Origin: Mycobacteriales bacterium
GTDB taxonomy: Bacteria; Actinomycetota; Actinomycetes; Mycobacteriales; SCTD01
Assembly (NCBI GenBank): GCA_038255675.1
Contig: JBBSLB010000001.1
Location: 1 to 46,932, forward strand
Direction of reading: 5' to 3'
Length of the DNA: 46,932 nt
Below the pieces are notes generated by a model. That model searched no databases. It saw only the letters and a list, made by a program, of their open reading frames with translations, and was not told the origin of the DNA. A program made the position numbers and the translations under genes. Positions 31,444 to 41,266 of this stretch are shown here, one piece after another (within the stretch, counting starts at the first letter, position 1; each line of letters begins with the position of its first letter).

Positions 31444-32700
31444 TCACTGTGCCCTTCTCGGCGCGTTCTCCACACTGCATGAGGGGTCAACGAGCGTCGC
31501 CGGCCGAACGCTCCCGGGACCGAAGCGGCGGGCGGCCCGGTCGACCGCCTGCTCGGCGTCGCGCCAGCCGTGCTCACGCTCGCCCAACGCGAGCTGGTGC
31601 TGGGCACCGGCCACGTCGCTGACCCCCTCGACCCGCACGCCGACCAGCCGGATGCGAGCCCGCTCGAGCCCGAGCGCGTCGTACAGCGCGGTCGCGGTGT
31701 CGTAGACGACCCGGCCGACGTCGGTCGACTCCGGCAGCGTGCGGGAGCGGGTGATGGTGGTGAAGTCGGCGAAGCGGACCTTGATCGAGACGGTACGACC
31801 GACCTGCGCGGAGGCGCGCAGCCGCGCGGCGGTGCGCTCCGACAGGCGCAGCAGCTCGCGGGAGATGACGGCCGGGTCGTCGACGTCGGTGCCGAAGGTG
31901 TTCTCGGCGCCGATGCTCTTGTCCGGCTCGTGCGGCACCACCGAGCGGTCGTCTCGGCCCCAGGCCAGCGCCGCCAGGTGCCGGCCGGCCGCGGGGCCGA
32001 GCGCCCGCTCGAGGGTGGTGACCGGGGTGTGGGCCAGGTCGCCGACCGTGTGCAGGCCCAGCGCGCTCAGCACCTGCTCGGTCTTGCCGCCGACTCCCCA
32101 CAGCGCGCCGACCGGGAGCGGGTGCAGGAAGGCGACGACCCCGTCGGCCGGGACGACGAGCAGTCCGTCGGGCTTGCAGCGGGCCGAGGCGAGCTTGGCG
32201 ACGAACTTGGTGCTGGCCACCCCGACCGAGCAGGTGATGCCCTGCTCGTCCTCGACCGTGGCCCGGATCCACTCGCCGATCCGGCGCGGGCTGCCCAACC
32301 GGCGAGAGGCGCCGCGGACGTCGAGAAAGGCCTCGTCGAGCGAGATCGGCTCGACCAGCGGCGTGATCGAGCGGAACACCTCCATGACGCCGTGCGAGGC
32401 GCGGGCGTAGGCGTCGTGGTCGGGCGCCAGCACGGCCGCCTGCGGGCACATCCGTCGGGCGCGCATCATCGGCATCGCACTGTGGACGCCGTGCACGCGG
32501 GCCTCGTAGGTCGCCGAGAGCACGACGCCGCGGGTACCGCCGCCCCCGACGATCACCGGCTGACCGAGCAGGTCGGGTCGGGCGAGCAACGAGACGCTGG
32601 CGTAGAAGGCGTCCATGTCGACGTGCAGGACCGGGCAGCCGGCGTCGTCGCCGGGCGGTCCGGTGGGCGGGCCGACGGGCGGGACGGACCCGCGGCTCAC
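31444..32700 (-). CDS. dinB: DNA polymerase IV (Y-family, catalytic residues intact)
   Basis: VLHVDMDAFYASV, SLDEAFLDV, LPVGALWGVGGKT and the little-finger region. Confidence 0.93.
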   Translation of the reverse strand: MSRGSVPPVGPPTGPPGDDAGCPVLHVDMDAFYASVSLLARPDLLGQPVIVGGGGTRGVVLSATYEARVHGVHSAMPMMRARRMCPQAAVLAPDHDAYARASHGVMEVFRSITPLVEPISLDEAFLDVRGASRRLGSPRRIGEWIRATVEDEQGITCSVGVASTKFVAKLASARCKPDGLLVVPADGVVAFLHPLPVGALWGVGGKTEQVLSALGLHTVGDLAHTPVTTLERALGPAAGRHLAALAWGRDDRSVVPHEPDKSIGAENTFGTDVDDPAVISRELLRLSERTAARLRASAQVGRTVSIKVRFADFTTITRSRTLPESTDVGRVVYDTATALYDALGLERARIRLVGVRVEGVSDVAGAQHQLALGEREHGWRDAEQAVDRAARRFGPGSVRPATLVDPSCSVENAPRRAQ

Positions 32701-32739: not shown

Positions 32740-33510
32740 TCAGCGGCGTACGGCGAGCAGGTGGAGCTGGGTCGCGACGTCGCGGAACGGCAGTCGGCTG
32801 GACAGGGCGCGCTCGAGTGCCAGCAGCGAGGCGGCCGCCCCTGGCTCGCTGTCGAGCACCGAGCTCGGGACCAGGTCGCTGACGACGCGCACACCGTGCA
32901 GCTGCTCGACGACCAGCCCGGCCGCAGCGACCAGCTCGCCGAGCGCAGCGACGGTGAAGCGGCGGCGCATCCCGTCGGTCGGGCCGAACCGGCCGGCGGG
33001 GTCGGTGAGGGCGTGGGCCGCCTCGTCGGGGTGGCCGGCCAGGGCCCGGGCGAGCACGGCGGCGTCGCGGTTGGCGGCCAGCAGGCTGAGCCGTCCGCCG
33101 TCGCGCAGCACCGTGGCGACGCCGTTGAGAGCGTCGGCGGGGTCGTCGACGACCTCGAGCACGCTGTGGCAGAGCAGCAGGTCGGCGCTGCCGGCCGGGA
33201 CGAGTCCGGCCAGCTCCGACAGGTCACCCTGCACCCCGGCGACGCGGCCCTCGAGCCCGCGCTCGGCCACCCGCCGGGCCAGGGCTGCGAGCGAGTCGGG
33301 GCTGGGGTCGACGACGGTGACGCGGTGACCCGCCTCGGCGAGCGGGACGGCGAAGCCGCCGGTGCCCCCACCGGCGTCGACGACGTCGAGGCCGCGGCCG
33401 TGGGGGTCGGCCTCGGCGAGGGCGGCGGACAGCACCTCCCACACCACGGCGGTGCGCACGGAGGAAGCCGGGCCGGACGGCCGGGCGGGGCTCGACGGGT
33501 CGTGCGGCAC
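32740..33510 (-). CDS. class I SAM-dependent methyltransferase
   Basis: Motif I LDVVDAGGGTGGFAVPLAEAGHRVTVVDPS, then DLLLCHSVLEVVDDP. The substrate cannot be inferred. Confidence 0.85.
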   Translation of the reverse strand: MPHDPSSPARPSGPASSVRTAVVWEVLSAALAEADPHGRGLDVVDAGGGTGGFAVPLAEAGHRVTVVDPSPDSLAALARRVAERGLEGRVAGVQGDLSELAGLVPAGSADLLLCHSVLEVVDDPADALNGVATVLRDGGRLSLLAANRDAAVLARALAGHPDEAAHALTDPAGRFGPTDGMRRRFTVAALGELVAAAGLVVEQLHGVRVVSDLVPSSVLDSEPGAAASLLALERALSSRLPFRDVATQLHLLAVRR

Positions 33511-33559: not shown

Positions 33560-34552
33560 CTAACGACGGCGCCAGGGGCCCGGCATGCTGTCGACCACGG
33601 CGCGTCGCTGCGCCCCCGCCTCGTCGCCGAGCTCGAGGGTCGTGGCGGCGCTGGTGGGCGACGGACTGACGCTCACCGTGGCGGTGGGGCTGATGGTGGG
33701 CGTGGCGCTGGCCGTGGCGCTGGCCGTGGCGCTGGCCGTGGCGCTGGCCGTGGCGCGCGGGCTGGCCGAGGTGCACGGGTTCGCGGTGGCGGTGGCGGTG
33801 GCGGTGGCGGTGGCGGTGGCGGTGGAGGTAGCCGTGGCGGACGCCGACGGGGACGGGCTTGCGGTCGGGCAGGCCGACACGATGGGCGAGAAGACGGTGC
33901 CGGACACCTCGCCGGTCCAGTAGGACGTGCGCTTGAGGGCACCGGCCCACGAGTAGCTGACGTGCACGTGGTCGGTGTGCGGGCTCGCCCCGCTGTAGGG
34001 CTGCCAGCCCTTGGCGGCCTGGTAGCTCTTCCAGATCTGGGAGTCCCAGATGACGTACATGACACCGAGCCGGCGCATCATCGCCGCGGCGTTGCCGTGC
34101 TCGTCCTCGGCCAGCAGCCAGGTGAACAGGTCCTCCACCGCCGCCACGTCGGAGGGGTTGGAGGTGTTGACCCGCCAGTCCCAGGCGCGGCCCTCCTTGT
34201 GCTCGCTGGTCCCGCCGACCGAGCAGGACCGGACGATGCCGGAGTCCCCGGTGCCGGGATAGGCGGCCAGCACCAGGTCGCGGAAGGCGATGACCCCGGC
34301 GCGGGCGATCGGTTCGCACTGGGTCTGCCCCTGGTAGGGCGCGAAGGCCTCGATCTCGCTGCCAGGGGTGACCGTGTCCGGCGCGGCGGCGGCCAGGCCG
34401 ACCGGCAGCACGAGGGCCGCGACCAGGCCCGCGAGGACCGCGGCGATCGACAGCAGGCGCCGGCGGGCGGGTCGCCTGCCGGTGGTCGGCGGGGTCGGTG
34501 GAGCGGTCGGGTCGGGCGTCGGAGCAGGCGTCGAGGTAGTCGTGCTGAGCAC
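33560..34552 (-). CDS. secreted LAS/M15-type zinc peptidase-like protein with an Ala/Thr/Ser microsatellite tail
   Basis: RRRLL-containing signal-like N-terminus with a TM (IAAVLAGLVAALVLPVGLAAAAP). SxHxxGxAxD motif (SEHKEGRAWD) and HxH (HTDHVHV). C-terminal ATATSTATATATATATATA / ASATASATASATASAT tail encoded by hexa- and dodecanucleotide repeats. Confidence 0.8.
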   Translation of the reverse strand: MLSTTTSTPAPTPDPTAPPTPPTTGRRPARRRLLSIAAVLAGLVAALVLPVGLAAAAPDTVTPGSEIEAFAPYQGQTQCEPIARAGVIAFRDLVLAAYPGTGDSGIVRSCSVGGTSEHKEGRAWDWRVNTSNPSDVAAVEDLFTWLLAEDEHGNAAAMMRRLGVMYVIWDSQIWKSYQAAKGWQPYSGASPHTDHVHVSYSWAGALKRTSYWTGEVSGTVFSPIVSACPTASPSPSASATATSTATATATATATATANPCTSASPRATASATASATASATASATPTISPTATVSVSPSPTSAATTLELGDEAGAQRRAVVDSMPGPWRRR

Positions 34553-34756: not shown

Positions 34757-37700
34757 TCACCTGCCTGCGCTCCCCTGGCTGGCGTGCCAGAGCTTGCGCG
34801 GGGCGCTCGGCACGGGCCGCCCGCCCGAGGTCCCGACCCCGTCGCCGGCGGGCTTGACGTCGGCGTAGGGCGAGGCCCGGAAGCCGGTCGCGTAGACGTG
34901 CACCGCCCCACCCACGCCGGAATGGCCTGCCCCGCCGCCCACCAGCGGCGGCGAGGTCATGACCGGCCGGCTGGACCGGCTGGCCGCCGCGCCCTGGACC
35001 GCGGCCTCGGTGACCAGCGCCGGGGTGGCCATGAGCTCCCACACCGCGTCGAGGCCGCCGGACTGCCAGGCGGCGTGCAGAGCCGGCAGCTCCCAGCAGC
35101 CGACCGCCTGCATCGACACCCCGCGCGGGCCGGTGCGGCGGACCAGCCCCTGGACGACGAGCAGCCAGGAGTGGAAGACCGTCGTCGCGAACCCGACCTG
35201 GGCGTCCTCGAAGAAGGTCGCGTCGAGCGGGCCGGTCGCGTCGTCGAGCGTCACGAAGATGACCCGTCGGCCGGACCGGATCGGCGGGGTCTGGGTGGCG
35301 ACCTTCACCCCGGCGACGAGCACCTCCTGCCGACTGCGGCAGCCGAGCAGGTCGCGCGCCCGCGTCGTGCCCAGCTCGTCGAGGAACGGCGCGTAGGCGT
35401 CCATGACGTGGGAGCTGACGTCGAGGCCGAGCACGTCGAGCTCGGCCCGCACCCGCTCGGCGGAGGTCATCTCGGGTAGCCCGCTGGAGGCGGTGGTCTC
35501 CGGCGCGTCACCGAGGTCGAGCGCGAGCTGCACGTCGACCGGCTCCACGACGGCCGGCGCCTGCGACTGGCGGGCCTGCCGGGCGCGGACGTCGTCGAGC
35601 GCGACAGGACCTCCCGTGCCAGCTGCGTCCTCAGGGCGGGTGCCGGCAAGGCCCAAGGGGGCGCGCGGGGTGCTGGCGCGGGCTCCGGCCCGCGAGCGAC
35701 CGCGAACGCCACCGGCGCGGGTCCGGGTGGCACGGGTCCAGCGGTCGAGCTCGGCGACCTGAAGCAGCAGGTCGCGCCGGGTGACCTGCCCGCGCCGGCG
35801 GACCGGCAGGGTGGAGCCCAGTCCGTAGAGGGAGTCGAACCCGCCGGCCACCACGAGCCGCTCGGCCACCGGTCGGGACACCGCGGCGCGGTGCCAGAAG
35901 TCCGACAGCGAGGAGTACGGCCGGCCGGTGACGACGCGGGCGACCTCGGCCTCGGACATGCCCTTGACGTCGGCCAGCCCGATCCGGATGCCGTAGCCGC
36001 GACCATCGGGCAGCCGCGGGTCCGACGGTGCGCTGCGCGGCCCGCTCACCCCGCCGAGCACGCCCCGCCCGTCGACCCAGGGCTCGAGCGCGCCGTCGAA
36101 CGGCTGCGGCGCCGGCCCGCCCACCTGCTCGAGGCTGGTGACCTGGTCCAAGATGGCCGGCGGCGGCTCGTCGAACACGCCGACCCGCTCCACGCGGTAT
36201 GCCGCGTCGGAGGCGTTGACGTCGAGCCCGAGCACGGCGATGCCGAGCTGGCGGGCGTCGTCGAGGATGAGCCGCTTGGGGTACATGCCGGGGTCGTGCG
36301 TGAGCACCCCGGCGAGGAACGCCGCCGGGTGGTGGGCCTTGAGCCAGGCCGACTGGTAGGTCGGCAGCGCAAAGGCGGCCGCGTGGGCCTTGCAGAAGCC
36401 GAACGAGCCGAACGCCTTGAGCACCTCCCACACCCGCTCGACGACCCCGAGCGGGTAGCCGGCGGCCAATGCGGTCGGCACGAACCAGGACTGCACCTCG
36501 GGCCGACCCTCGGGGTCGCCGAGCGACCGGCGCACCTCGTCGGCCTCGGCCAGCGAGCAGCCGGTCATCGTGCTGACGATCTGCAGGACCTGCTCGTGGA
36601 AGACGACGACGCCGTGGGTCTGGGCGAGCACCGGCTCGAGGTCGGGGTGCAGGTAGTCGGCCGTCTTCCAGCCCTGCCGCGCCTCGAGGAACGGCCGCAC
36701 CATGTCGCTCTTCACGGGCCCCGGCCGGAACAGCGAGATGTCGACGATGAGGTCCTCGAAGGTCTCCGGCGCGAACTTGCCGACCAGCTCGCGCTGTCCC
36801 GGCGACTCGATCTGGAAGCAGCCGAGCGTCCTGGTCGACTGCACCAGCGCGAAGGTCGCCGGGTCATCGCGCGGCGCGGCGTCGACGTCCACGAGCGCGC
36901 CGTCGACCCGGGCCACCTCGCCGATGGCGTGCTGCATCGCCGACTGCATGCGGATGCCGAGCACGTCGAGCTTGAGCAGCCCGAGCTCCTCGACGTCGTC
37001 CTTGTCGAACTGGCTCATCGGGAAGCCCAGCCAGCTGGACTCCACCGGGGTGCGGTCCAGCAGGGTGCGGTCGGACAGCAGCACCCCGCACGGGTGCAGC
37101 GCGACGTGCCGCGGCAGCCCGTCGAGTCGCTCCACCAGGCGCAGCAGCAGGTCGATCCGCCCTGCGTTCTCCCCGCGCGCCAGGCCGCTGTTCCGCAGCT
37201 CGGGCAGGTCGCGCATCGCTGCGCGCACCTGGCTGGCCCGGATGTGCGGGAACGCCTTGGCCAACGCGTCGACCTCACCCGGCGGCAGCCCGAGCGCGGC
37301 GCCGACGTCGCGCACGCCGTGCCGGGCGCGGTAGGTGTCCATCATCGACACGCAGGTGCATCGCTCCCCGCCGTAGCGGGCCAGGATCCGCTCGTAGACC
37401 TCGGTGCGGCGGGCGGACTCCACGTCGACGTCGATGTCGGGCAGCTGGTGGCGCAGCGGCGACAGGAAGCGCTCCATGAGCAGGCCGTAGCGGACCGGGT
37501 CGACGTCGCTGATGCCGAGCAGGTAGGTCACCAGCGAACCGGCGCCGCTCCCCCGCGCCGCGACCCGCACGCCCATGTCCTTGATGAGGTCGACGACGTC
37601 GGCGACGGTGAGGAAGTACGACGGGTAGCCCAGCCCGCGGATGACGCCGAGCTCGTCCTCGAGCCGGGCGAGGGTGCCGGCGTCGCGGGCCATCGCCCGC

Positions 37701-38737
37701 CGGCCGAAGCCAGCCTCGCAGCGGGCGCGCAGCACCGCCGCCGGCTCGCCGCCCCCCGCTGTCCCTGATGTCTCCAGCTCGGGGAAGTGCACCTCGCCGA
37801 TGCCGAGGTCGGCCCGCGGGTCGACGGCGCACCGGTCGGCTTCGTAGCGGGTGCGGGCGAGCAGGCCACGGCCGTCGTCGGCCAGCCCCGCGGCGCGGGC
37901 GACCTGCTCGGCGACCAGGGCCATCTCCTTGCCGGACAGCAGCGCGGCCTCGGCGTTGCGGCGGTCGATGTGGCGCAGGTCGAGCGCGACCAGCCGGCGG
38001 GCGGCGTCGAGCACGTCGGCGGTCGGGGCGTCGGAGCGGTCGGCGTAGCGCACGACGTTGGTGAGCACGGCCGGCGCCCGCTCCGCCGAGGCCAGGCCGA
38101 GCATCCGGGCGGCCCGAACGACGTCGCCGGGCCCACGGTGGCAGACCACCTCGACGACGACCGAGCCGGCGCCGAGCACCTCGCGCCAGCGGGTCAGGTG
38201 GTCGCGGGCGACGTCGTCGCGGCGCGCGGCGACCGCGCGGCCCAGCTCCGAGCCGGGGCCGAGCAGCACCGCCAGCGCGCCGTCCTGGGCCGCGCCCCCG
38301 GCGTGCTCGGCGACCAGGTCGAGGGTGGTGACCGGCGCGCCGCGCTCGCCGGCCAGGTGGGTGGCCGACACCAGCCGGCACAGCGCCGCCCAGCCGCGCC
38401 GGTCGCGGGCGAGCAGCACGACCCGCGGCAGCGGCGCGCCGGGCTGCTCGAGGAAGGCGCCGCCGCGGGCCGGCGAGGCGCGGCCGGACCGGGCCCGCTC
38501 CCCGGGGGCGGCCAGCGGTGCGACGGCCAGGTCGACGCCGAAGACCGGCCGCACCCCGGCCGCGCCGCAGGCCTTGGCAAACTTGACCACGCCGTAGGCG
38601 CCGTCGCGGTCGGTGAGGGCGAGGGCGTCCATGCCGTGGTCGGCGGCCCGCTGGACGAGGGCGGCCGGGTGGGACGCGCCGTGCCGCAGCGAGTAGCCGG
38701 AGGCGACGTGCAGGTGGACAAAGGGGTCGCTGGACAC
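34757..38737 (-). CDS. dnaE2: DnaE2/ImuC-type DNA polymerase III alpha-subunit homologue (about 1326 aa)
   Basis: ORF 34757..38920 trimmed to the GTG at 38737, 5 nt after the upstream stop. PHP N-terminus FVHLHVASGYSLRHGASHPAALVQRAADHGMDALALTDRDGAYG (DnaE2-like). Catalytic LPDIDVDVE and LKLDVLGIRMQSAM. MTSAERVRAELDVLGLDVSSH, then an OB-fold (VLVAGVKVATQTPPIRSGRRVIFVTLDDATG) and a short post-OB region. Confidence 0.8.
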   Translation of the reverse strand: MSSDPFVHLHVASGYSLRHGASHPAALVQRAADHGMDALALTDRDGAYGVVKFAKACGAAGVRPVFGVDLAVAPLAAPGERARSGRASPARGGAFLEQPGAPLPRVVLLARDRRGWAALCRLVSATHLAGERGAPVTTLDLVAEHAGGAAQDGALAVLLGPGSELGRAVAARRDDVARDHLTRWREVLGAGSVVVEVVCHRGPGDVVRAARMLGLASAERAPAVLTNVVRYADRSDAPTADVLDAARRLVALDLRHIDRRNAEAALLSGKEMALVAEQVARAAGLADDGRGLLARTRYEADRCAVDPRADLGIGEVHFPELETSGTAGGGEPAAVLRARCEAGFGRRAMARDAGTLARLEDELGVIRGLGYPSYFLTVADVVDLIKDMGVRVAARGSGAGSLVTYLLGISDVDPVRYGLLMERFLSPLRHQLPDIDVDVESARRTEVYERILARYGGERCTCVSMMDTYRARHGVRDVGAALGLPPGEVDALAKAFPHIRASQVRAAMRDLPELRNSGLARGENAGRIDLLLRLVERLDGLPRHVALHPCGVLLSDRTLLDRTPVESSWLGFPMSQFDKDDVEELGLLKLDVLGIRMQSAMQHAIGEVARVDGALVDVDAAPRDDPATFALVQSTRTLGCFQIESPGQRELVGKFAPETFEDLIVDISLFRPGPVKSDMVRPFLEARQGWKTADYLHPDLEPVLAQTHGVVVFHEQVLQIVSTMTGCSLAEADEVRRSLGDPEGRPEVQSWFVPTALAAGYPLGVVERVWEVLKAFGSFGFCKAHAAAFALPTYQSAWLKAHHPAAFLAGVLTHDPGMYPKRLILDDARQLGIAVLGLDVNASDAAYRVERVGVFDEPPPAILDQVTSLEQVGGPAPQPFDGALEPWVDGRGVLGGVSGPRSAPSDPRLPDGRGYGIRIGLADVKGMSEAEVARVVTGRPYSSLSDFWHRAAVSRPVAERLVVAGGFDSLYGLGSTLPVRRRGQVTRRDLLLQVAELDRWTRATRTRAGGVRGRSRAGARASTPRAPLGLAGTRPEDAAGTGGPVALDDVRARQARQSQAPAVVEPVDVQLALDLGDAPETTASSGLPEMTSAERVRAELDVLGLDVSSHVMDAYAPFLDELGTTRARDLLGCRSRQEVLVAGVKVATQTPPIRSGRRVIFVTLDDATGPLDATFFEDAQVGFATTVFHSWLLVVQGLVRRTGPRGVSMQAVGCWELPALHAAWQSGGLDAVWELMATPALVTEAAVQGAAASRSSRPVMTSPPLVGGGAGHSGVGGAVHVYATGFRASPYADVKPAGDGVGTSGGRPVPSAPRKLWHASQGSAGR

Positions 38738-38742
38738 GGCAG

Positions 38743-39162
38743 TCAGCCGGACCGGAGCAGCAGCTGGTGTCCGGGGACGCCGAGCATCGGCTCGACGACG
38801 TCGAGGAAGGACTCGGCGTCGCGCACCAGGTCGTCGGCCTCGCGGTCGGTGACCGCCGACGGCAGCCCGGCCTCGGCGGCCGCCCGCTTGCGCGCACCGG
38901 CGGCGAAGAAGGCCGCCCACTCCCCCAGCTCAGGGGCGACGTCGGCGAGCAGCACCCAGGCGCTGGTCGGCCGGCTGCGGCGCCCGCCGGCCGGCCGGGC
39001 ACGGCAGGCCAGCACGGCGGCCGCGGCGCGCAGCGCGGCCAGGTGGGCGGTGGCGTAGCGCTCGGCCGGGGTCGTGGCGGTGCACGCCTCGACCAGGCCG
39101 CGGCGGGACAGGGCCAGCAAGGTGGAAGCCGGCAGACCAGGAGCAGGAGCGACAGCGGTCAT
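38743..39162 (-). CDS. HEPN-like protein (resembles the SAV_6107 family) with an Rx4H motif
   Basis: 139 aa, all-helical-looking. ERYATAHLAALRAAAAVL carries R-x4-H. ATG preceded by GAGGG. Sits 12 nt after the upstream gene and 5 nt before the polymerase start. The family call is from memory of its sequence pattern. Confidence 0.6.
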   Translation of the reverse strand: MTAVAPAPGLPASTLLALSRRGLVEACTATTPAERYATAHLAALRAAAAVLACRARPAGGRRSRPTSAWVLLADVAPELGEWAAFFAAGARKRAAAEAGLPSAVTDREADDLVRDAESFLDVVEPMLGVPGHQLLLRSG

Positions 39163-39174
39163 CGGGCAGCCCTC

Positions 39175-39525
39175 TCAGTCCAGGACCCGGGCAAGCGACC
39201 AGCCGCCCGTGGTCGTGTCGAAGCACAGGTCGTAGACGCCGATGCCGGCGGCGCGCCCAGCGCCGGCCTCGACCCGGAACCAGTCCTGCTCGCCGTCGTC
39301 GATCGAGGCGGACCCGACACCGGCGCCCACGTCGGCGCCCACGTCGGGGGCCGTGGCGTCACCGGAGGACAGCGCCTGGACGGTGGCCCTGCGCCACCAA
39401 CCCCCGGACTCGGTCCAGCGGGCCAGGACCTCCCGCACGACGTAGAGCCGGCCGCGCCACAGGAACTGCGCGGGCAGGTCGTCGTGCCGGGCCACCTGGA
39501 CGGCGTCGGCGAGCAGACGGGACAA
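39175..39525 (-). CDS. DUF6504-like small protein
   Basis: 116 aa. TTG start 4 nt after GGAGGAGGA. FLWRGRLYVVREVLARWTESGGWWR ... WFRVEAGAGRAAGIGVYDLCFDTTTGGWSLARVLD matches my recollection of DUF6504 proteins. Confidence 0.6.
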   Translation of the reverse strand: MSRLLADAVQVARHDDLPAQFLWRGRLYVVREVLARWTESGGWWRRATVQALSSGDATAPDVGADVGAGVGSASIDDGEQDWFRVEAGAGRAAGIGVYDLCFDTTTGGWSLARVLD

Positions 39526-39739
39526 AGGGTCCTCCTCCCTGGGACGGGCGGGCAGCGGGTGCTGCTCCGCGGGTGCCGGGGGAAGGCGGCGGGTCGGGCG
39601 GGTCGACCCGGGCGAGGCGCTTCCCCACGCTCCGCCCGGGTCGACGGCCCGCCCGGCAGCCGTGGAAGGGTCGAGTCTCCCGAGCCGCCGGGCGGAGTCC
39701 GCCCGCGGCGGGTCCGCGAGGTCCCGCCGTCATGATCGC

Positions 39740-39755
39740 TCGAACGCGTGTTCGA
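39740..39755. promoter_or_regulatory. LexA (SOS) box, actinobacterial type
   Basis: Perfect palindrome TCGAAC-GCGT-GTTCGA (consensus TCGAAC-N4-GTTCGA), 215 nt upstream of the DUF6504 TTG. On the operon strand a TANNNT-type hexamer TACTGT (39765..39770) lies just upstream of the box. Confidence 0.75.
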
Positions 39756-39883
39756 ACGACAGGAACAGTAGACCCCGACTCCGACAAGACCGTCAACCGT
39801 CGACCTGGGATCGAGGGACGAGGGGATGTTCCTGCTCCAGGCGCACCGGTACGGCACGCTGGCGCCATGACACCGGGCCCGCT

Positions 39884-40432
39884 CGGTCGTCGACCCCGCC
39901 CACCGCGCCAACCCCGACCCGCCGTACAGGACGAGGGCAACGGCTCGACGAGACCGAGCTGCGGTCGGTGGCCGGGCTGGTCCTCGCCGCGGGCTTCGAG
40001 ACCACCGTCAACCTGCTCGGCAGCGGCACCGTCCTGCTGCTCGAGCACCCCGAGCAGCGCGAGCGGCTGCGCGCGGACCCGTCGCTGTGGCCGACCGCGG
40101 TCGACGAGGTGCTGCGCTACGAGTCGCCGGTGCAGCTGACTGCCCGCTTCGCCACCCGCGACACCGAGCTCGCCGGCCGGCCGCTGCGCCGCGGCGGCCT
40201 GGTCGTGACGATGCTCGGCGGGGCCAACCGCGACCCGTCGGTCTTCGCTGACCCGGCCCGCTTCGACGTCGGCCGCGCCAGCGCCCGCGACCACCTGTCC
40301 TTCTCCGCCGGCCGGCACTTCTGCCTGGGCGCCTCGCTGGCCCGGCTCGAGGGCGAGGTCGGGCTGCGTGCGTTGCTGGAGCGCTTCCCGGATCTCGCCG
40401 CCGGCCCCGGCCGGCGCCGTACGACCATCGCC
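39884..40432 (+). pseudogene. cytochrome P450 remnant (C-terminal half only, frameshifted; boundaries approximate)
   Basis: From about 39941 one frame gives the I-helix LVLAAGFETT, the ExxR region EVLRYESP and the heme loop FSAGRHFCLGASLA. Upstream, P450-like pieces (HRANPD, VQDEGNG) sit in two other frames. No N-terminal half is present. There is no in-frame stop before the reading frame runs into the convergent cbiX gene. Confidence 0.65.
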
Positions 40433-41266
40433 TCAGCCCGGCAGGTCGTCCGGGTGGTCGTGCGGCTCCTGCGCGGCGCCGACAGCGGCCTCGCGTCCGG
40501 GCAGCGGGGTGCGGTAGAGGCAGGCGTCGCAGTTCATCCGGATGTCGGTCGTACGCGCCTCGTCGTAGCGCTCGAGCAGCAGCCCGGCCAGCGCGTCGGT
40601 CGCGCCGAGCGGTGCGGTGATGACGGCCTCGACGCCCTCGACCGCCCCGGCCTGGCGCGCGACCAGCCGCGGGAGGAAGCCGGGGCCGAGGAAGTAGCGG
40701 GCGACCGCCACGCGGGTCGCGCCCTGCGCGCGCAACCGCGCCAGCGCCTCGGGCACGGTCGGCCGGGCGGTCGAGGCGAAGGCGACGTCGACCGACGGCC
40801 AGCCGCGCCCCTCGAACAGCAGCCGGGCGGTGGCGGCGACCTGGGCGTTGGCGTCGGGGTCGAGCGCTCCCCCGGCCACGAGCAGCACGGGGTCGGCGTC
40901 GCGCGCGCCCGCCTCGGCCAGCCGCAGCGCGAGTCCGGCGACGAGCACCGGGTGCGGGCCGAGCGGCCGGCCGTAGCGCAGCCGCAGCCCGGGATGCGCA
41001 GCGCGGCCGGCCTGCACCGACGCGGCGACATCGGTCTTGCTGTGCGAGGCGGGGGTGAGCAGCAGCGGCAGCAGCACGACGTCGTCGATGCCGTCGGCCA
41101 CCAGCGCCGCCAGCGCAGCGCGGACCGACGGCGAGGCGTTGTCGACGTAGGCGTCGGTGGTGCGCAGCCCCGGACGCAGCCGCTCGGCACGGGCCAGCAG
41201 CTCGCGCACCCCGGCCTGCGAGTCGGGGTCCTTGGAGCCGTGCGCAACGGCGAGCAGCACGCTCAC
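40433..41266 (-). CDS. sirohydrochlorin ferrochelatase (long CbiX/SirB type with a Cys-rich tail)
   Basis: ORF 40433..41677 trimmed to the GTG at 41266 (GTGA overlap with the upstream stop). Two CbiX repeats (LLAVAHGSKDP ... LLPLLLTPASHSKTD; LLVAGGALDPDAN ... VARYFLGPG). C-terminal MNCDACLY. Confidence 0.82.
   Translation of the reverse strand: MSVLLAVAHGSKDPDSQAGVRELLARAERLRPGLRTTDAYVDNASPSVRAALAALVADGIDDVVLLPLLLTPASHSKTDVAASVQAGRAAHPGLRLRYGRPLGPHPVLVAGLALRLAEAGARDADPVLLVAGGALDPDANAQVAATARLLFEGRGWPSVDVAFASTARPTVPEALARLRAQGATRVAVARYFLGPGFLPRLVARQAGAVEGVEAVITAPLGATDALAGLLLERYDEARTTDIRMNCDACLYRTPLPGREAAVGAAQEPHDHPDDLPG

Follow-up and report, generated by a model that had tools for sequence, protein, structure and literature searches.

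We analyzed a 46,932-nucleotide stretch of a Mycobacteriales bacterium genome (GenBank assembly GCA_038255675.1, contig JBBSLB010000001.1, positions 1 to 46,932; hereafter the window), focusing on a minus-strand locus that opens with a LexA (SOS) box and a structured RNA leader. Three closely packed genes follow: imuB-C, which is predicted to encode a stand-alone ImuB C-terminal domain; a HEPN_SAV_6107 gene, 12 nt further on; and, after another 5 nt, dnaE2, which encodes a predicted error-prone C-family DNA polymerase. Three more genes on the same strand lie downstream, the last being a Y-family polymerase gene, polY (Table 1). An earlier note on this DNA had described the box, a TACTGT hexamer, and the three genes with their short gaps, all of which we confirmed on the sequence. 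Judging from homology and gene order, the locus is very probably an SOS-regulated translesion synthesis and mutagenesis operon of the putative DnaE2B-PolY-ImuB-C-RecA mutasome type.

Table 1. Features of the locus, in the order in which the minus strand is read (positions in the window)
Feature	Position	Strand	Remarks
-35-like element TTGACG	39791..39796	-	20 nt upstream of TACTGT
TGTCGGAG-N8-TACTGT	39765..39786	-	the only perfect match of this string in the window
-10 element TACTGT	39765..39770	-	9 nt upstream of the LexA box
LexA (SOS) box TCGAAC-N4-GTTCGA	39740..39755	.	minus strand TCGAACACGCGTTCGA, plus strand TCGAACGCGTGTTCGA
5' leader RNA	39526..39739	-	about 215 nt, between the LexA box and the imuB-C start
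Leader helix P1	~39729..39706	-	
Leader helix P2	~39695..39649	-	conserved CUCGACCCU in the loop
Leader helix P3	39648..39599	-	invariant loop GUGGGGAAGC at 39628..39619
CUUCCCCCGGC	39585..39575	-	downstream of P3
Small leader hairpin	39565..39552	-	
Shine-Dalgarno (SD) sequence GGGAGGAGG	39539..39531	-	
imuB-C (stand-alone ImuB C-terminal domain, Pfam DUF6504)	39175..39525	-	116 aa; TTG start behind GGGAGGAGG
HEPN_SAV_6107 gene (non-canonical HEPN)	38743..39162	-	139 aa
dnaE2 (DnaE2B clade; predicted error-prone C-family polymerase)	34757..38737	-	1326 aa
Predicted exported protein, AT/PT-rich repeats	33560..34552	-	330 aa
Class I S-adenosylmethionine-dependent methyltransferase	32740..33510	-	256 aa
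polY (Y-family DNA polymerase IV, RecA N-terminus-like C terminus)	31444..32700	-	

The polymerase carries the Pfam domains PHP, DNA_pol3_alpha, finger, HHH_6, and OB. A 2026 survey in Nucleic Acids Research distinguishes three DnaE2 groups, A, B, and X (PMC12926913), and we placed the window polymerase with a neighbor-joining tree (987 columns, 100 bootstraps). All DnaE2 types separated from the DnaE1 references with 100% bootstrap support, bearing out the DnaE2-type call of the earlier note. The window polymerase grouped at 99% with polymerases whose genes neighbor DUF6504 (Nonomuraea and an Arthrobacter plasmid) or, on a Streptomyces plasmid, an inactive Y-family gene. DnaE2 proteins linked to ImuAB (Kitasatospora, Rhizobium, and Burkholderia), which are 31-34% identical to the window polymerase, formed a clade of their own at 100%, and ImuY-linked DnaE2 also fell outside the window polymerase's clade. 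Relative to a DnaE with an intact PHP domain, three PHP metal ligands are substituted (HLHNHT to HLHVAS, LDG to RHG, and DHG to DRDG), and the N terminus is nearly identical to that of the published DnaE2B of Nocardioides euryhalodurans. By sequence, then, we classify the window polymerase as a DnaE2 of the ImuA/ImuB-independent DnaE2B clade.

Two side observations concern DnaE2B more generally. The polymerase C terminus (34757-34900, minus strand) contains the pattern GF(R/K)xSPYxDxKPAG...RKLWHASxGSxG, common to the Nonomuraea and Streptomyces-plasmid DnaE2B proteins; the Arthrobacter plasmid enzyme lacks this tail, and so does DnaE2A, whose last residues are xRxF(R/H). More than 130 plasmids of Streptomyces, Kitasatospora, and Arthrobacter carry DnaE2B-like genes annotated merely as 'dnaE' (e.g., L039, pYA7-1a, and L040, Streptomyces sp. 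NBC_00073); the gene on Arthrobacter pYA7-1a is paired with a DUF6504 gene and adjoins a SRAP peptidase gene.

The 116-aa protein matched Pfam DUF6504 (E 8.5e-18), as the earlier note had suggested. The same model (PF20114, cut-off 24.2 bits) recognized the small proteins of the lexA-iPolY-x-dnaE2 cassettes of Deinococcus grandis (31.4 bits) and of an Abditibacteriota plasmid (35.1 bits), and the Deinococcus protein has been named a stand-alone ImuB-C (PMC8072749). It also matched residues 426-498 of the 503 residues of Rhizobium ImuB (E 0.019, corrected for 24,736 models). Direct comparison of the window gene with ImuB-C proteins of the 2026 supplement gave E-values of 1e-15 (Kineococcus), 1.5e-13 (Nocardioides), and 7e-9 (Tessaracoccus). 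When the DUF6504 alignment was matched profile to profile against individual ImuB sequences, the similarity was weak (E 0.09 and 0.24), at the right C-terminal position and with profiles that are too shallow; a homologue search seeded with Rhizobium ImuB returned relatives that were all at least 78% identical and so did not help to build an ImuB-C profile. In an AlphaFold2 model, a disordered insert is surrounded by a confidently predicted all-beta core, for which Foldseek found no analogue in the PDB, in agreement with published ImuB-C descriptions. The DUF6504 profile likewise matched no solved structure, and the PDB holds no DnaE2 or ImuB structure. From these homologies, we take the 116-aa protein to be the stand-alone ImuB-C already known from the literature. 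The domain was defined by Aravind et al. (2013), who noted solo copies in operons with DnaE2. A literature search on DUF6504 itself found nothing. The earlier note knew of no functional description of the three-gene set; that view has to be given up, since the domain was described in 2013 and the combination of DnaE2B, ImuB-C, PolY, and RecA was catalogued and modeled with AlphaFold in 2026.

PolY contains the Pfam domains IMS, IMS_C, and IMS_HHH, scores 395 bits against the NCBIfam polymerase IV model NF003015 (cut-off 367), and retains the catalytic motifs DMDAFYASV and SLDEAF; from its sequence it is apparently an active-type Y-family polymerase. Its C terminus, AVDRAARRFGPGSVRPATL, includes RFGPGSVRP, which shares FGxGSV with the RecA N terminus (NFGKGSVMR), as judged by eye rather than by profile. 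No gene for ImuA, ImuA', ImuB, RecA, or LexA was found in the window, and tblastn with ImuA', ImuA, and ImuB of three cassettes matched only the polymerase IV gene, at 26-29% identity over the Y-family core. The earlier note's statement that the operon has no partner within about 8 kb thus holds for ImuA' and a dead ImuB, but it overlooked this active-type Y-family gene 2 kb downstream of dnaE2. We assign the locus to the DnaE2B-PolY-ImuB-C-RecA type because PolY shares 71% identity with its counterpart in the published Kineococcus tetramer of that class. The survey lists this type and the DnaE2B-ImuB-C type as putative, AlphaFold-supported complexes found in Actinobacteria only, with Tessaracoccus lapidicaptus, Janibacter indicus, Kineococcus radiotolerans, Ornithinimicrobium pratense, and N. 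euryhalodurans as the representatives of the former (PMC12926913). The window has four features that characterize them: a polymerase of the DnaE2B clade, substituted ligands in its PHP domain, an adjacent stand-alone ImuB-C, and an apparently active PolY with a RecA N-terminus-like motif.

We compared the locus with related ones from two scans: (i) a genome scan seeded by the DUF6504 alignment, which used two narrow peptide patterns and yielded one clade of Frankiales and Mycobacteriales metagenome-assembled genomes, saying little about wider distribution; and (ii) a metagenome scan for GUGGGGAAGC plus CUUCCCCCGGC of the leader, which gave 80 matches, of which 5 were discarded as chance occurrences in unrelated low-GC DNA and 75 were real. 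In the first scan the nearest relatives of the window were metagenome-assembled genomes labeled Frankiales, Mycobacteriales, or Actinomycetota. The order imuB-C, HEPN, dnaE2, (x), methyltransferase, polY, DUF3040 was kept in all related genome loci that were sufficiently long, and it recurs on an independently annotated 4.16-Mb contig. The linkage of the two small genes to the polymerase that the earlier note proposed is therefore conserved across related loci. The methyltransferase (Pfam Methyltransf_11/12/25; best match weakly CmoM-like) is syntenic between dnaE2 and polY, and directly follows the HEPN gene in two polymerase-less loci (L044 and L058). The 330-aa protein, which has long AT/PT/SAT repeats and no match in Pfam or NCBIfam, is probably encoded by a lineage-specific insertion between dnaE2 and the methyltransferase gene, because only some related loci have it; in one related locus (L028) the gap between dnaE2 and the methyltransferase gene is 5 nt.

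No other perfect TCGAAC-N4-GTTCGA occurs in the window besides the LexA box; sites with at most two mismatches number 7 against 1.17 expected, and no further box lies between dnaE2 and polY. It is not adjacent to the imuB-C start codon, being separated from it by the leader. Its half-sites are invariant and its N4 spacer variable in 37 of the 38 related genome loci, at -185 to -259 from the start codon, and this retention of the half-sites while the spacer varies argues that the box is more than a chance occurrence. A box also lies upstream of the leader motif in nearly all of the 75 metagenome loci. With conservation over more than 100 loci, the SOS control proposed in the earlier note appears sound at the level of the operator. 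Experiments in Streptomyces venezuelae have confirmed TCGAAC-N4-GTTCGA as the consensus, and dnaE2-dinP belongs to the core LexA targets of that species (PMC9380542). As in actinobacterial LexA regulons, the operator of the window locus sits in the promoter region and is kept in orthologous loci.

A general scan for consensus promoters and terminators found nothing in the 75% G+C DNA of the window. Comparison of the related loci points to a conserved TTGACG-N20-TACTGT just upstream of the box; its TTGAC is kept in the leader alignment and also in upstream regions that lack TGTCGG. Among 95 distinct upstream regions, 59 contain TGTCRG-N10-TANNNT, with its end 8-10 nt before the LexA box. The string TGTCGGAG-N8-TACTGT agrees with what we take to be the actinobacterial RecA-NDp (PafBC) promoter consensus, TGTCRGTG-N8-TANNNT, which presumably replaces a -35 element and was reportedly set out by Gamulin in 2004. 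Dual control of this candidate promoter, by PafBC activation and LexA repression, is possible. Background on PafBC and RecA-NDp promoters is available (PMC6789036 and PMC8223512). On the other side of the promoter lies a cytochrome P450 remnant (39905-40564, plus strand) that retains only the C-terminal third (profile positions 327-432 of 462). A related locus (L179) has at this position a full 470-aa P450 gene together with short-chain dehydrogenase/reductase, glyoxalase, sigma-factor, and acetyltransferase genes, and we therefore interpret the remnant as the result of a deletion in the window.

The gene between imuB-C and dnaE2 is not part of the published picture. Its 139-aa product matched Pfam HEPN_SAV_6107 (E 3.3e-39; 133.8 bits against a cut-off of 27.2), as the earlier note had predicted. 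An AlphaFold2 model (mean predicted local distance difference test score, pLDDT, 89.4) is a four-helix up-down bundle, and the top three Foldseek matches are HEPN proteins with template modeling (TM) scores of 0.54-0.65, at E-values of only 0.03-0.16. The gene follows imuB-C in every testable locus that has the leader or a close DUF6504 relative, with HEPN identities of 42-93%. In the roughly 60 testable leader-bearing loci this holds throughout; the polymerase comes next in about 42 and is absent in 5-8. Five polymerase-less loci (L070, L074, L076, and L107, continuing with DUF3040, and L077, continuing with the methyltransferase gene) keep the box, leader, imuB-C, and HEPN gene. The ImuB-C/HEPN pair thus persists without the C-family polymerase.

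The HEPN gene also occurs apart from imuB-C. The family comprises 1,092 representatives at 50% identity, and we sampled nine from distinct clusters: of the seven that could be tested, six carry a promoter LexA box, in one case with one mismatch, and the contexts include a single gene (Longispora albida), HEPN-methyltransferase-PolY, HEPN-LigA, and HEPN-NTP_transf_3. Perfect boxes lie 8-106 nt upstream of HEPN starts with no DnaE2 or ImuB-C nearby at L042:7957, L044:33, L047:1716, L058:298, and L180:7972 (L. albida). Because LexA boxes front the sampled genes in such varied contexts, HEPN_SAV_6107 looks, by sequence, like a general SOS gene in Actinomycetota, frequently though not exclusively coupled to ImuB-C. 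A tblastn search of 72,556 plasmid records gave no HEPN match, so the plasmid-borne DnaE2B genes of Streptomyces and Arthrobacter come without it. In the literature sources searchable, we found no description of a role for the HEPN gene or of a link between HEPN, LexA, and an SOS box.

A rival reading makes the HEPN protein an SOS-induced ribonuclease (RNase) or growth-arrest effector with a role separate from the polymerases, so that the operon would join a polymerase module to an unrelated RNase-like one. The fold itself favors this, as do the gene's own LexA boxes, both as a single gene and beside unrelated partners such as LigA and NTP_transf_3, and the pair R35-x4-H40, which is at least 90% conserved over 57 diverse members. 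The earlier note had taken this Rx4H as a HEPN hallmark. That reading does not stand: the pair lies in the second helix (32-54), whereas the last helix (106-127), where the canonical Rx4-6H would be expected, has a conserved ADDL and no His. The HEPN survey of Anantharaman (2013) likewise lists the motif as not conserved for HEPN-M (SAV_6107), describing that family as restricted to actinobacteria and giving no gene context (PMC3710099). The position of R35-x4-H40 and the lack of a His at the canonical site make RNase activity doubtful on sequence and model alike. There is also no conserved antitoxin-like partner, and an independent effector would not be expected beside imuB-C in every testable locus with the leader or a close DUF6504 relative. 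A weak similarity to the PADLOC candidate defense component PDC-M05B (E 3e-6, 25.5 bits, near full length) could be cited for an effector role, but probably reflects merely the common HEPN fold. We consider such an effector unlikely, if still a serious competitor to an accessory role beside ImuB-C.

The leader, in which three hairpins covary, precedes imuB-C in over 100 loci. Of the 75 metagenome loci, 71 have imuB-C as the first gene after the leader (29-97% identity), and the remaining four run into a contig end or carry a disrupted gene. The core is a 17-20 bp hairpin capped by the invariant GUGGGGAAGC loop and usually followed by CUUCCCCCGGC. RNAalifold returned a consensus fold of 36 pairs, 25 of them with compensatory changes; 94% of alignment cells are paired, a value that none of 500 shuffles reached (83.5% after shuffling), and sliding the register lowers it to 38-47%. 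At the mirrored stem positions of P3 in 98 distinct sequences, 85.2% of cells pair, against 63.1 +/- 1.1 with shuffled partners. A second GUGGGGAAGC...CUUCCCCCGGC copy occupies a 300-nt gap between the HEPN gene and dnaE2 in one locus (L016:11136), which suggests a modular element whose target is the next gene 3' of it. Another locus (L181) retains the hairpin ahead of the HEPN gene, with imuB-C absent. The sequences GGGGAAG and CUUCCCC are complementary, and the SD sequence is another possible pairing partner of CUUCCCCC; these complementarities suggest that the leader could be a switch that sequesters the SD sequence. In the sources searchable, a literature search for imuB together with an RNA motif gave no description of an imuB-C leader RNA.

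The leader might instead have no regulatory role, as a GC-rich spacer with incidental hairpins, or might serve as an RNase III processing or stability element that senses nothing. Hairpins form easily at 75% G+C, no Rfam family matched (best E-values 0.34-8.3, with scores far under the gathering thresholds), and CUUCCCCC is absent from three loci (L030, L034, and L181). Nor does the proposed pseudoknot between the loop and CUUCCCC have covariation support, as both sides are invariant or fixed by the search pattern. An incidental spacer would not, however, be expected to show so many compensatory changes with pairing far above the shuffled and slid controls, to keep its apical loop invariant while the DUF6504 proteins range from 29 to 97% identity, or to recur before dnaE2 in L016 and before the HEPN gene in L181. 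A leader without a regulatory function has, in our estimate, a small but real chance of being correct; translation of the first gene appears to be under the control of a conserved RNA structure.

Several points weigh against assigning the whole locus to the DnaE2B-PolY-ImuB-C-RecA type. In the window, the methyltransferase and polY genes lie beyond a 204-nt gap and the 330-aa gene as seen from dnaE2, and co-transcription as far as polY is therefore not assured. dnaE2 is absent from some leader-bearing loci (the five named above), and DnaE2B/ImuB-C pairs without PolY or HEPN nearby exist (the Arthrobacter plasmid and Nonomuraea); the parts are therefore separable. The published class was founded on co-localization and AlphaFold models only (PMC12926913). 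Finally, NCBIfam gives an ambiguous picture of the polymerase: it scores 654 bits on the error-prone model and 640 bits on the DnaE1 model (NF004226, cut-off 1002), in both cases well short of the cut-off.

Some of these points would also fit a self-sufficient trio, as the earlier note had it, in which ImuB-C and HEPN replace ImuA'/ImuB and the downstream polymerase IV gene is merely a syntenic neighbor. Pairs of DnaE2B and ImuB-C without an adjacent PolY have been published as 'DnaE2B-ImuBC dimers', and in the window the trio is tightly spaced while polY lies 2 kb off behind an inserted gene. Yet polY, with its RecA N-terminus-like tail, is syntenic in every locus long enough, the window ImuB-C and PolY are closest to the proteins of the published four-subunit systems, and the HEPN gene stands under LexA control where there is no DnaE2 at all, so that it is no dedicated DnaE2 factor. 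We regard a self-sufficient trio as improbable. The idea that the polymerase is a replicative DnaE1 paralogue with the small genes as unrelated passengers, for which one could cite the near-equal NF004226 score and the RefSeq label of its homologues ('dnaE: DNA polymerase III subunit alpha'), is refuted by its place in the DnaE2 clade, the substituted PHP ligands, the LexA box in front, the linkage to ImuB-C, and the failure of both NCBIfam models to reach their cut-offs.

The DnaE2B-PolY-ImuB-C-RecA assignment leads us to infer the following course of induction, complex formation, and activities. LexA bound just downstream of the -10 element would block transcription until DNA damage produces RecA filaments that provoke LexA self-cleavage, whereupon the operon would be transcribed; the structured leader on the transcript would then probably set translation of the first gene. 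ImuB-C would be a small beta-barrel adaptor that docks on the PHP domain of DnaE2, DnaE2B the catalytic polymerase, working without proofreading, and the tail of PolY would recruit the cell's own RecA. The tasks of mycobacterial ImuA' and ImuB would thus be split among PolY, the stand-alone ImuB-C, and housekeeping RecA. HEPN_SAV_6107 would be a further SOS-induced component that travels with ImuB-C rather than with the polymerase, probably as a non-catalytic accessory or regulatory factor.

Categorically, the locus adds nothing to the DnaE2B catalogue. What it may add are the HEPN/SOS association and the imuB-C leader RNA, features without a description in the sources searchable. We tentatively propose, as a possibility that we hold at well below even confidence, that HEPN_SAV_6107 is a widespread LexA-controlled partner of stand-alone ImuB-C (an extra translesion subunit or regulator not limited to DnaE2) and that the new leader, with its GUGGGGAAGC loop and CUUCCCCC, gates imuB-C as a ribosome-binding-site switch. 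Such gating would place a post-transcriptional checkpoint, on top of LexA, on the production of a mutagenic polymerase. In Actinomycetota, mutation after DNA damage is driven by error-prone polymerases, which in this way fuel the evolution of drug resistance; the putative ImuA'/ImuB-independent DnaE2B systems have only just been catalogued.

Among known systems, the published DnaE2B-PolY-ImuB-C-RecA complexes are the closest: the window shares their four component types by direct homology, lacks ImuA and ImuB, and belongs, as they all do, to Actinomycetota. Support for the published complexes comes from AlphaFold models of five systems (interface predicted TM score, ipTM, ~0.84; PMC12926913), in which ImuB-C docks on the inactivated PHP domain of DnaE2. 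In contrast to the window, the HEPN gene, methyltransferase, LexA box, and RNA leader are not mentioned for that class: PMC12926913 contains no mention of HEPN, DUF6504, PF18726, a methyltransferase, a LexA box, or an RNA leader, nor do its supplements mention the first three. The accessions in its Supplementary data file 4 nevertheless skip one gene between ImuB-C and DnaE2B in Janibacter (APH01277/79/81), Kineococcus (ABS04681/79/77), and Ornithinimicrobium (QFG68257/59), and one between DnaE2B and PolY in Janibacter, Kineococcus, and Nocardioides; Tessaracoccus shows no skip between ImuB-C and DnaE2B. The accession numbering would fit an unreported HEPN gene and methyltransferase gene at these places and hints at the layout seen in the window. 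For much of the class, the published four-component picture is probably incomplete, since the operon also keeps genes for a HEPN-like protein and a methyltransferase.

The canonical ImuA'-ImuB-DnaE2 mutasome of Mycobacterium tuberculosis (DnaE2A) resembles the predicted system in being SOS-inducible and in centering on a C-family polymerase that is error-prone and has a dead PHP domain; further common parts are an ImuB-C beta-barrel, presumed to dock on DnaE2, a Y-family organizer, and a RecA-type partner. In the window, however, ImuB-C is separate from the Y-family protein, which appears catalytically active; RecA presumably takes the place of the missing ImuA', and the polymerase belongs to a different clade. 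A canonical DnaE2A mutasome is ruled out for the window on these grounds, no ImuA' or dead ImuB being encoded there. ImuA-less variants were described by Timinskas and Venclovas (2019). The lexA-iPolY-x-dnaE2 cassette of Deinococcus, the sole ImuB-C-containing cassette with experimental evidence of SOS mutagenesis (PMC8072749), shares with the window a stand-alone ImuB-C of the same Pfam family directly upstream of dnaE2, LexA control, and the absence of ImuA. It differs in that its ImuY is dead and lies upstream, lexA is within the operon, HEPN and methyltransferase genes are lacking, and the DnaE2 is of another clade. The DnaE2B-ImuB-C dimer type (Arthrobacter alpinus, the Arthrobacter sp. 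YA7-1 plasmid, and Nonomuraea gerenzanensis) has a DnaE2B-clade polymerase with DUF6504/ImuB-C directly upstream, as in the window, but without a HEPN gene in between and without an adjacent PolY; the Arthrobacter ImuB-C is also far more divergent, giving no tblastn match on the window. The HEPN protein, for its part, resembles HEPN-M (SAV_6107; PMC3710099) in its strong Pfam match, predicted four-helix bundle, and restriction to actinobacteria, and departs from that description in its recurrent LexA-box context and in an R-x4-H that is conserved at a non-canonical position.

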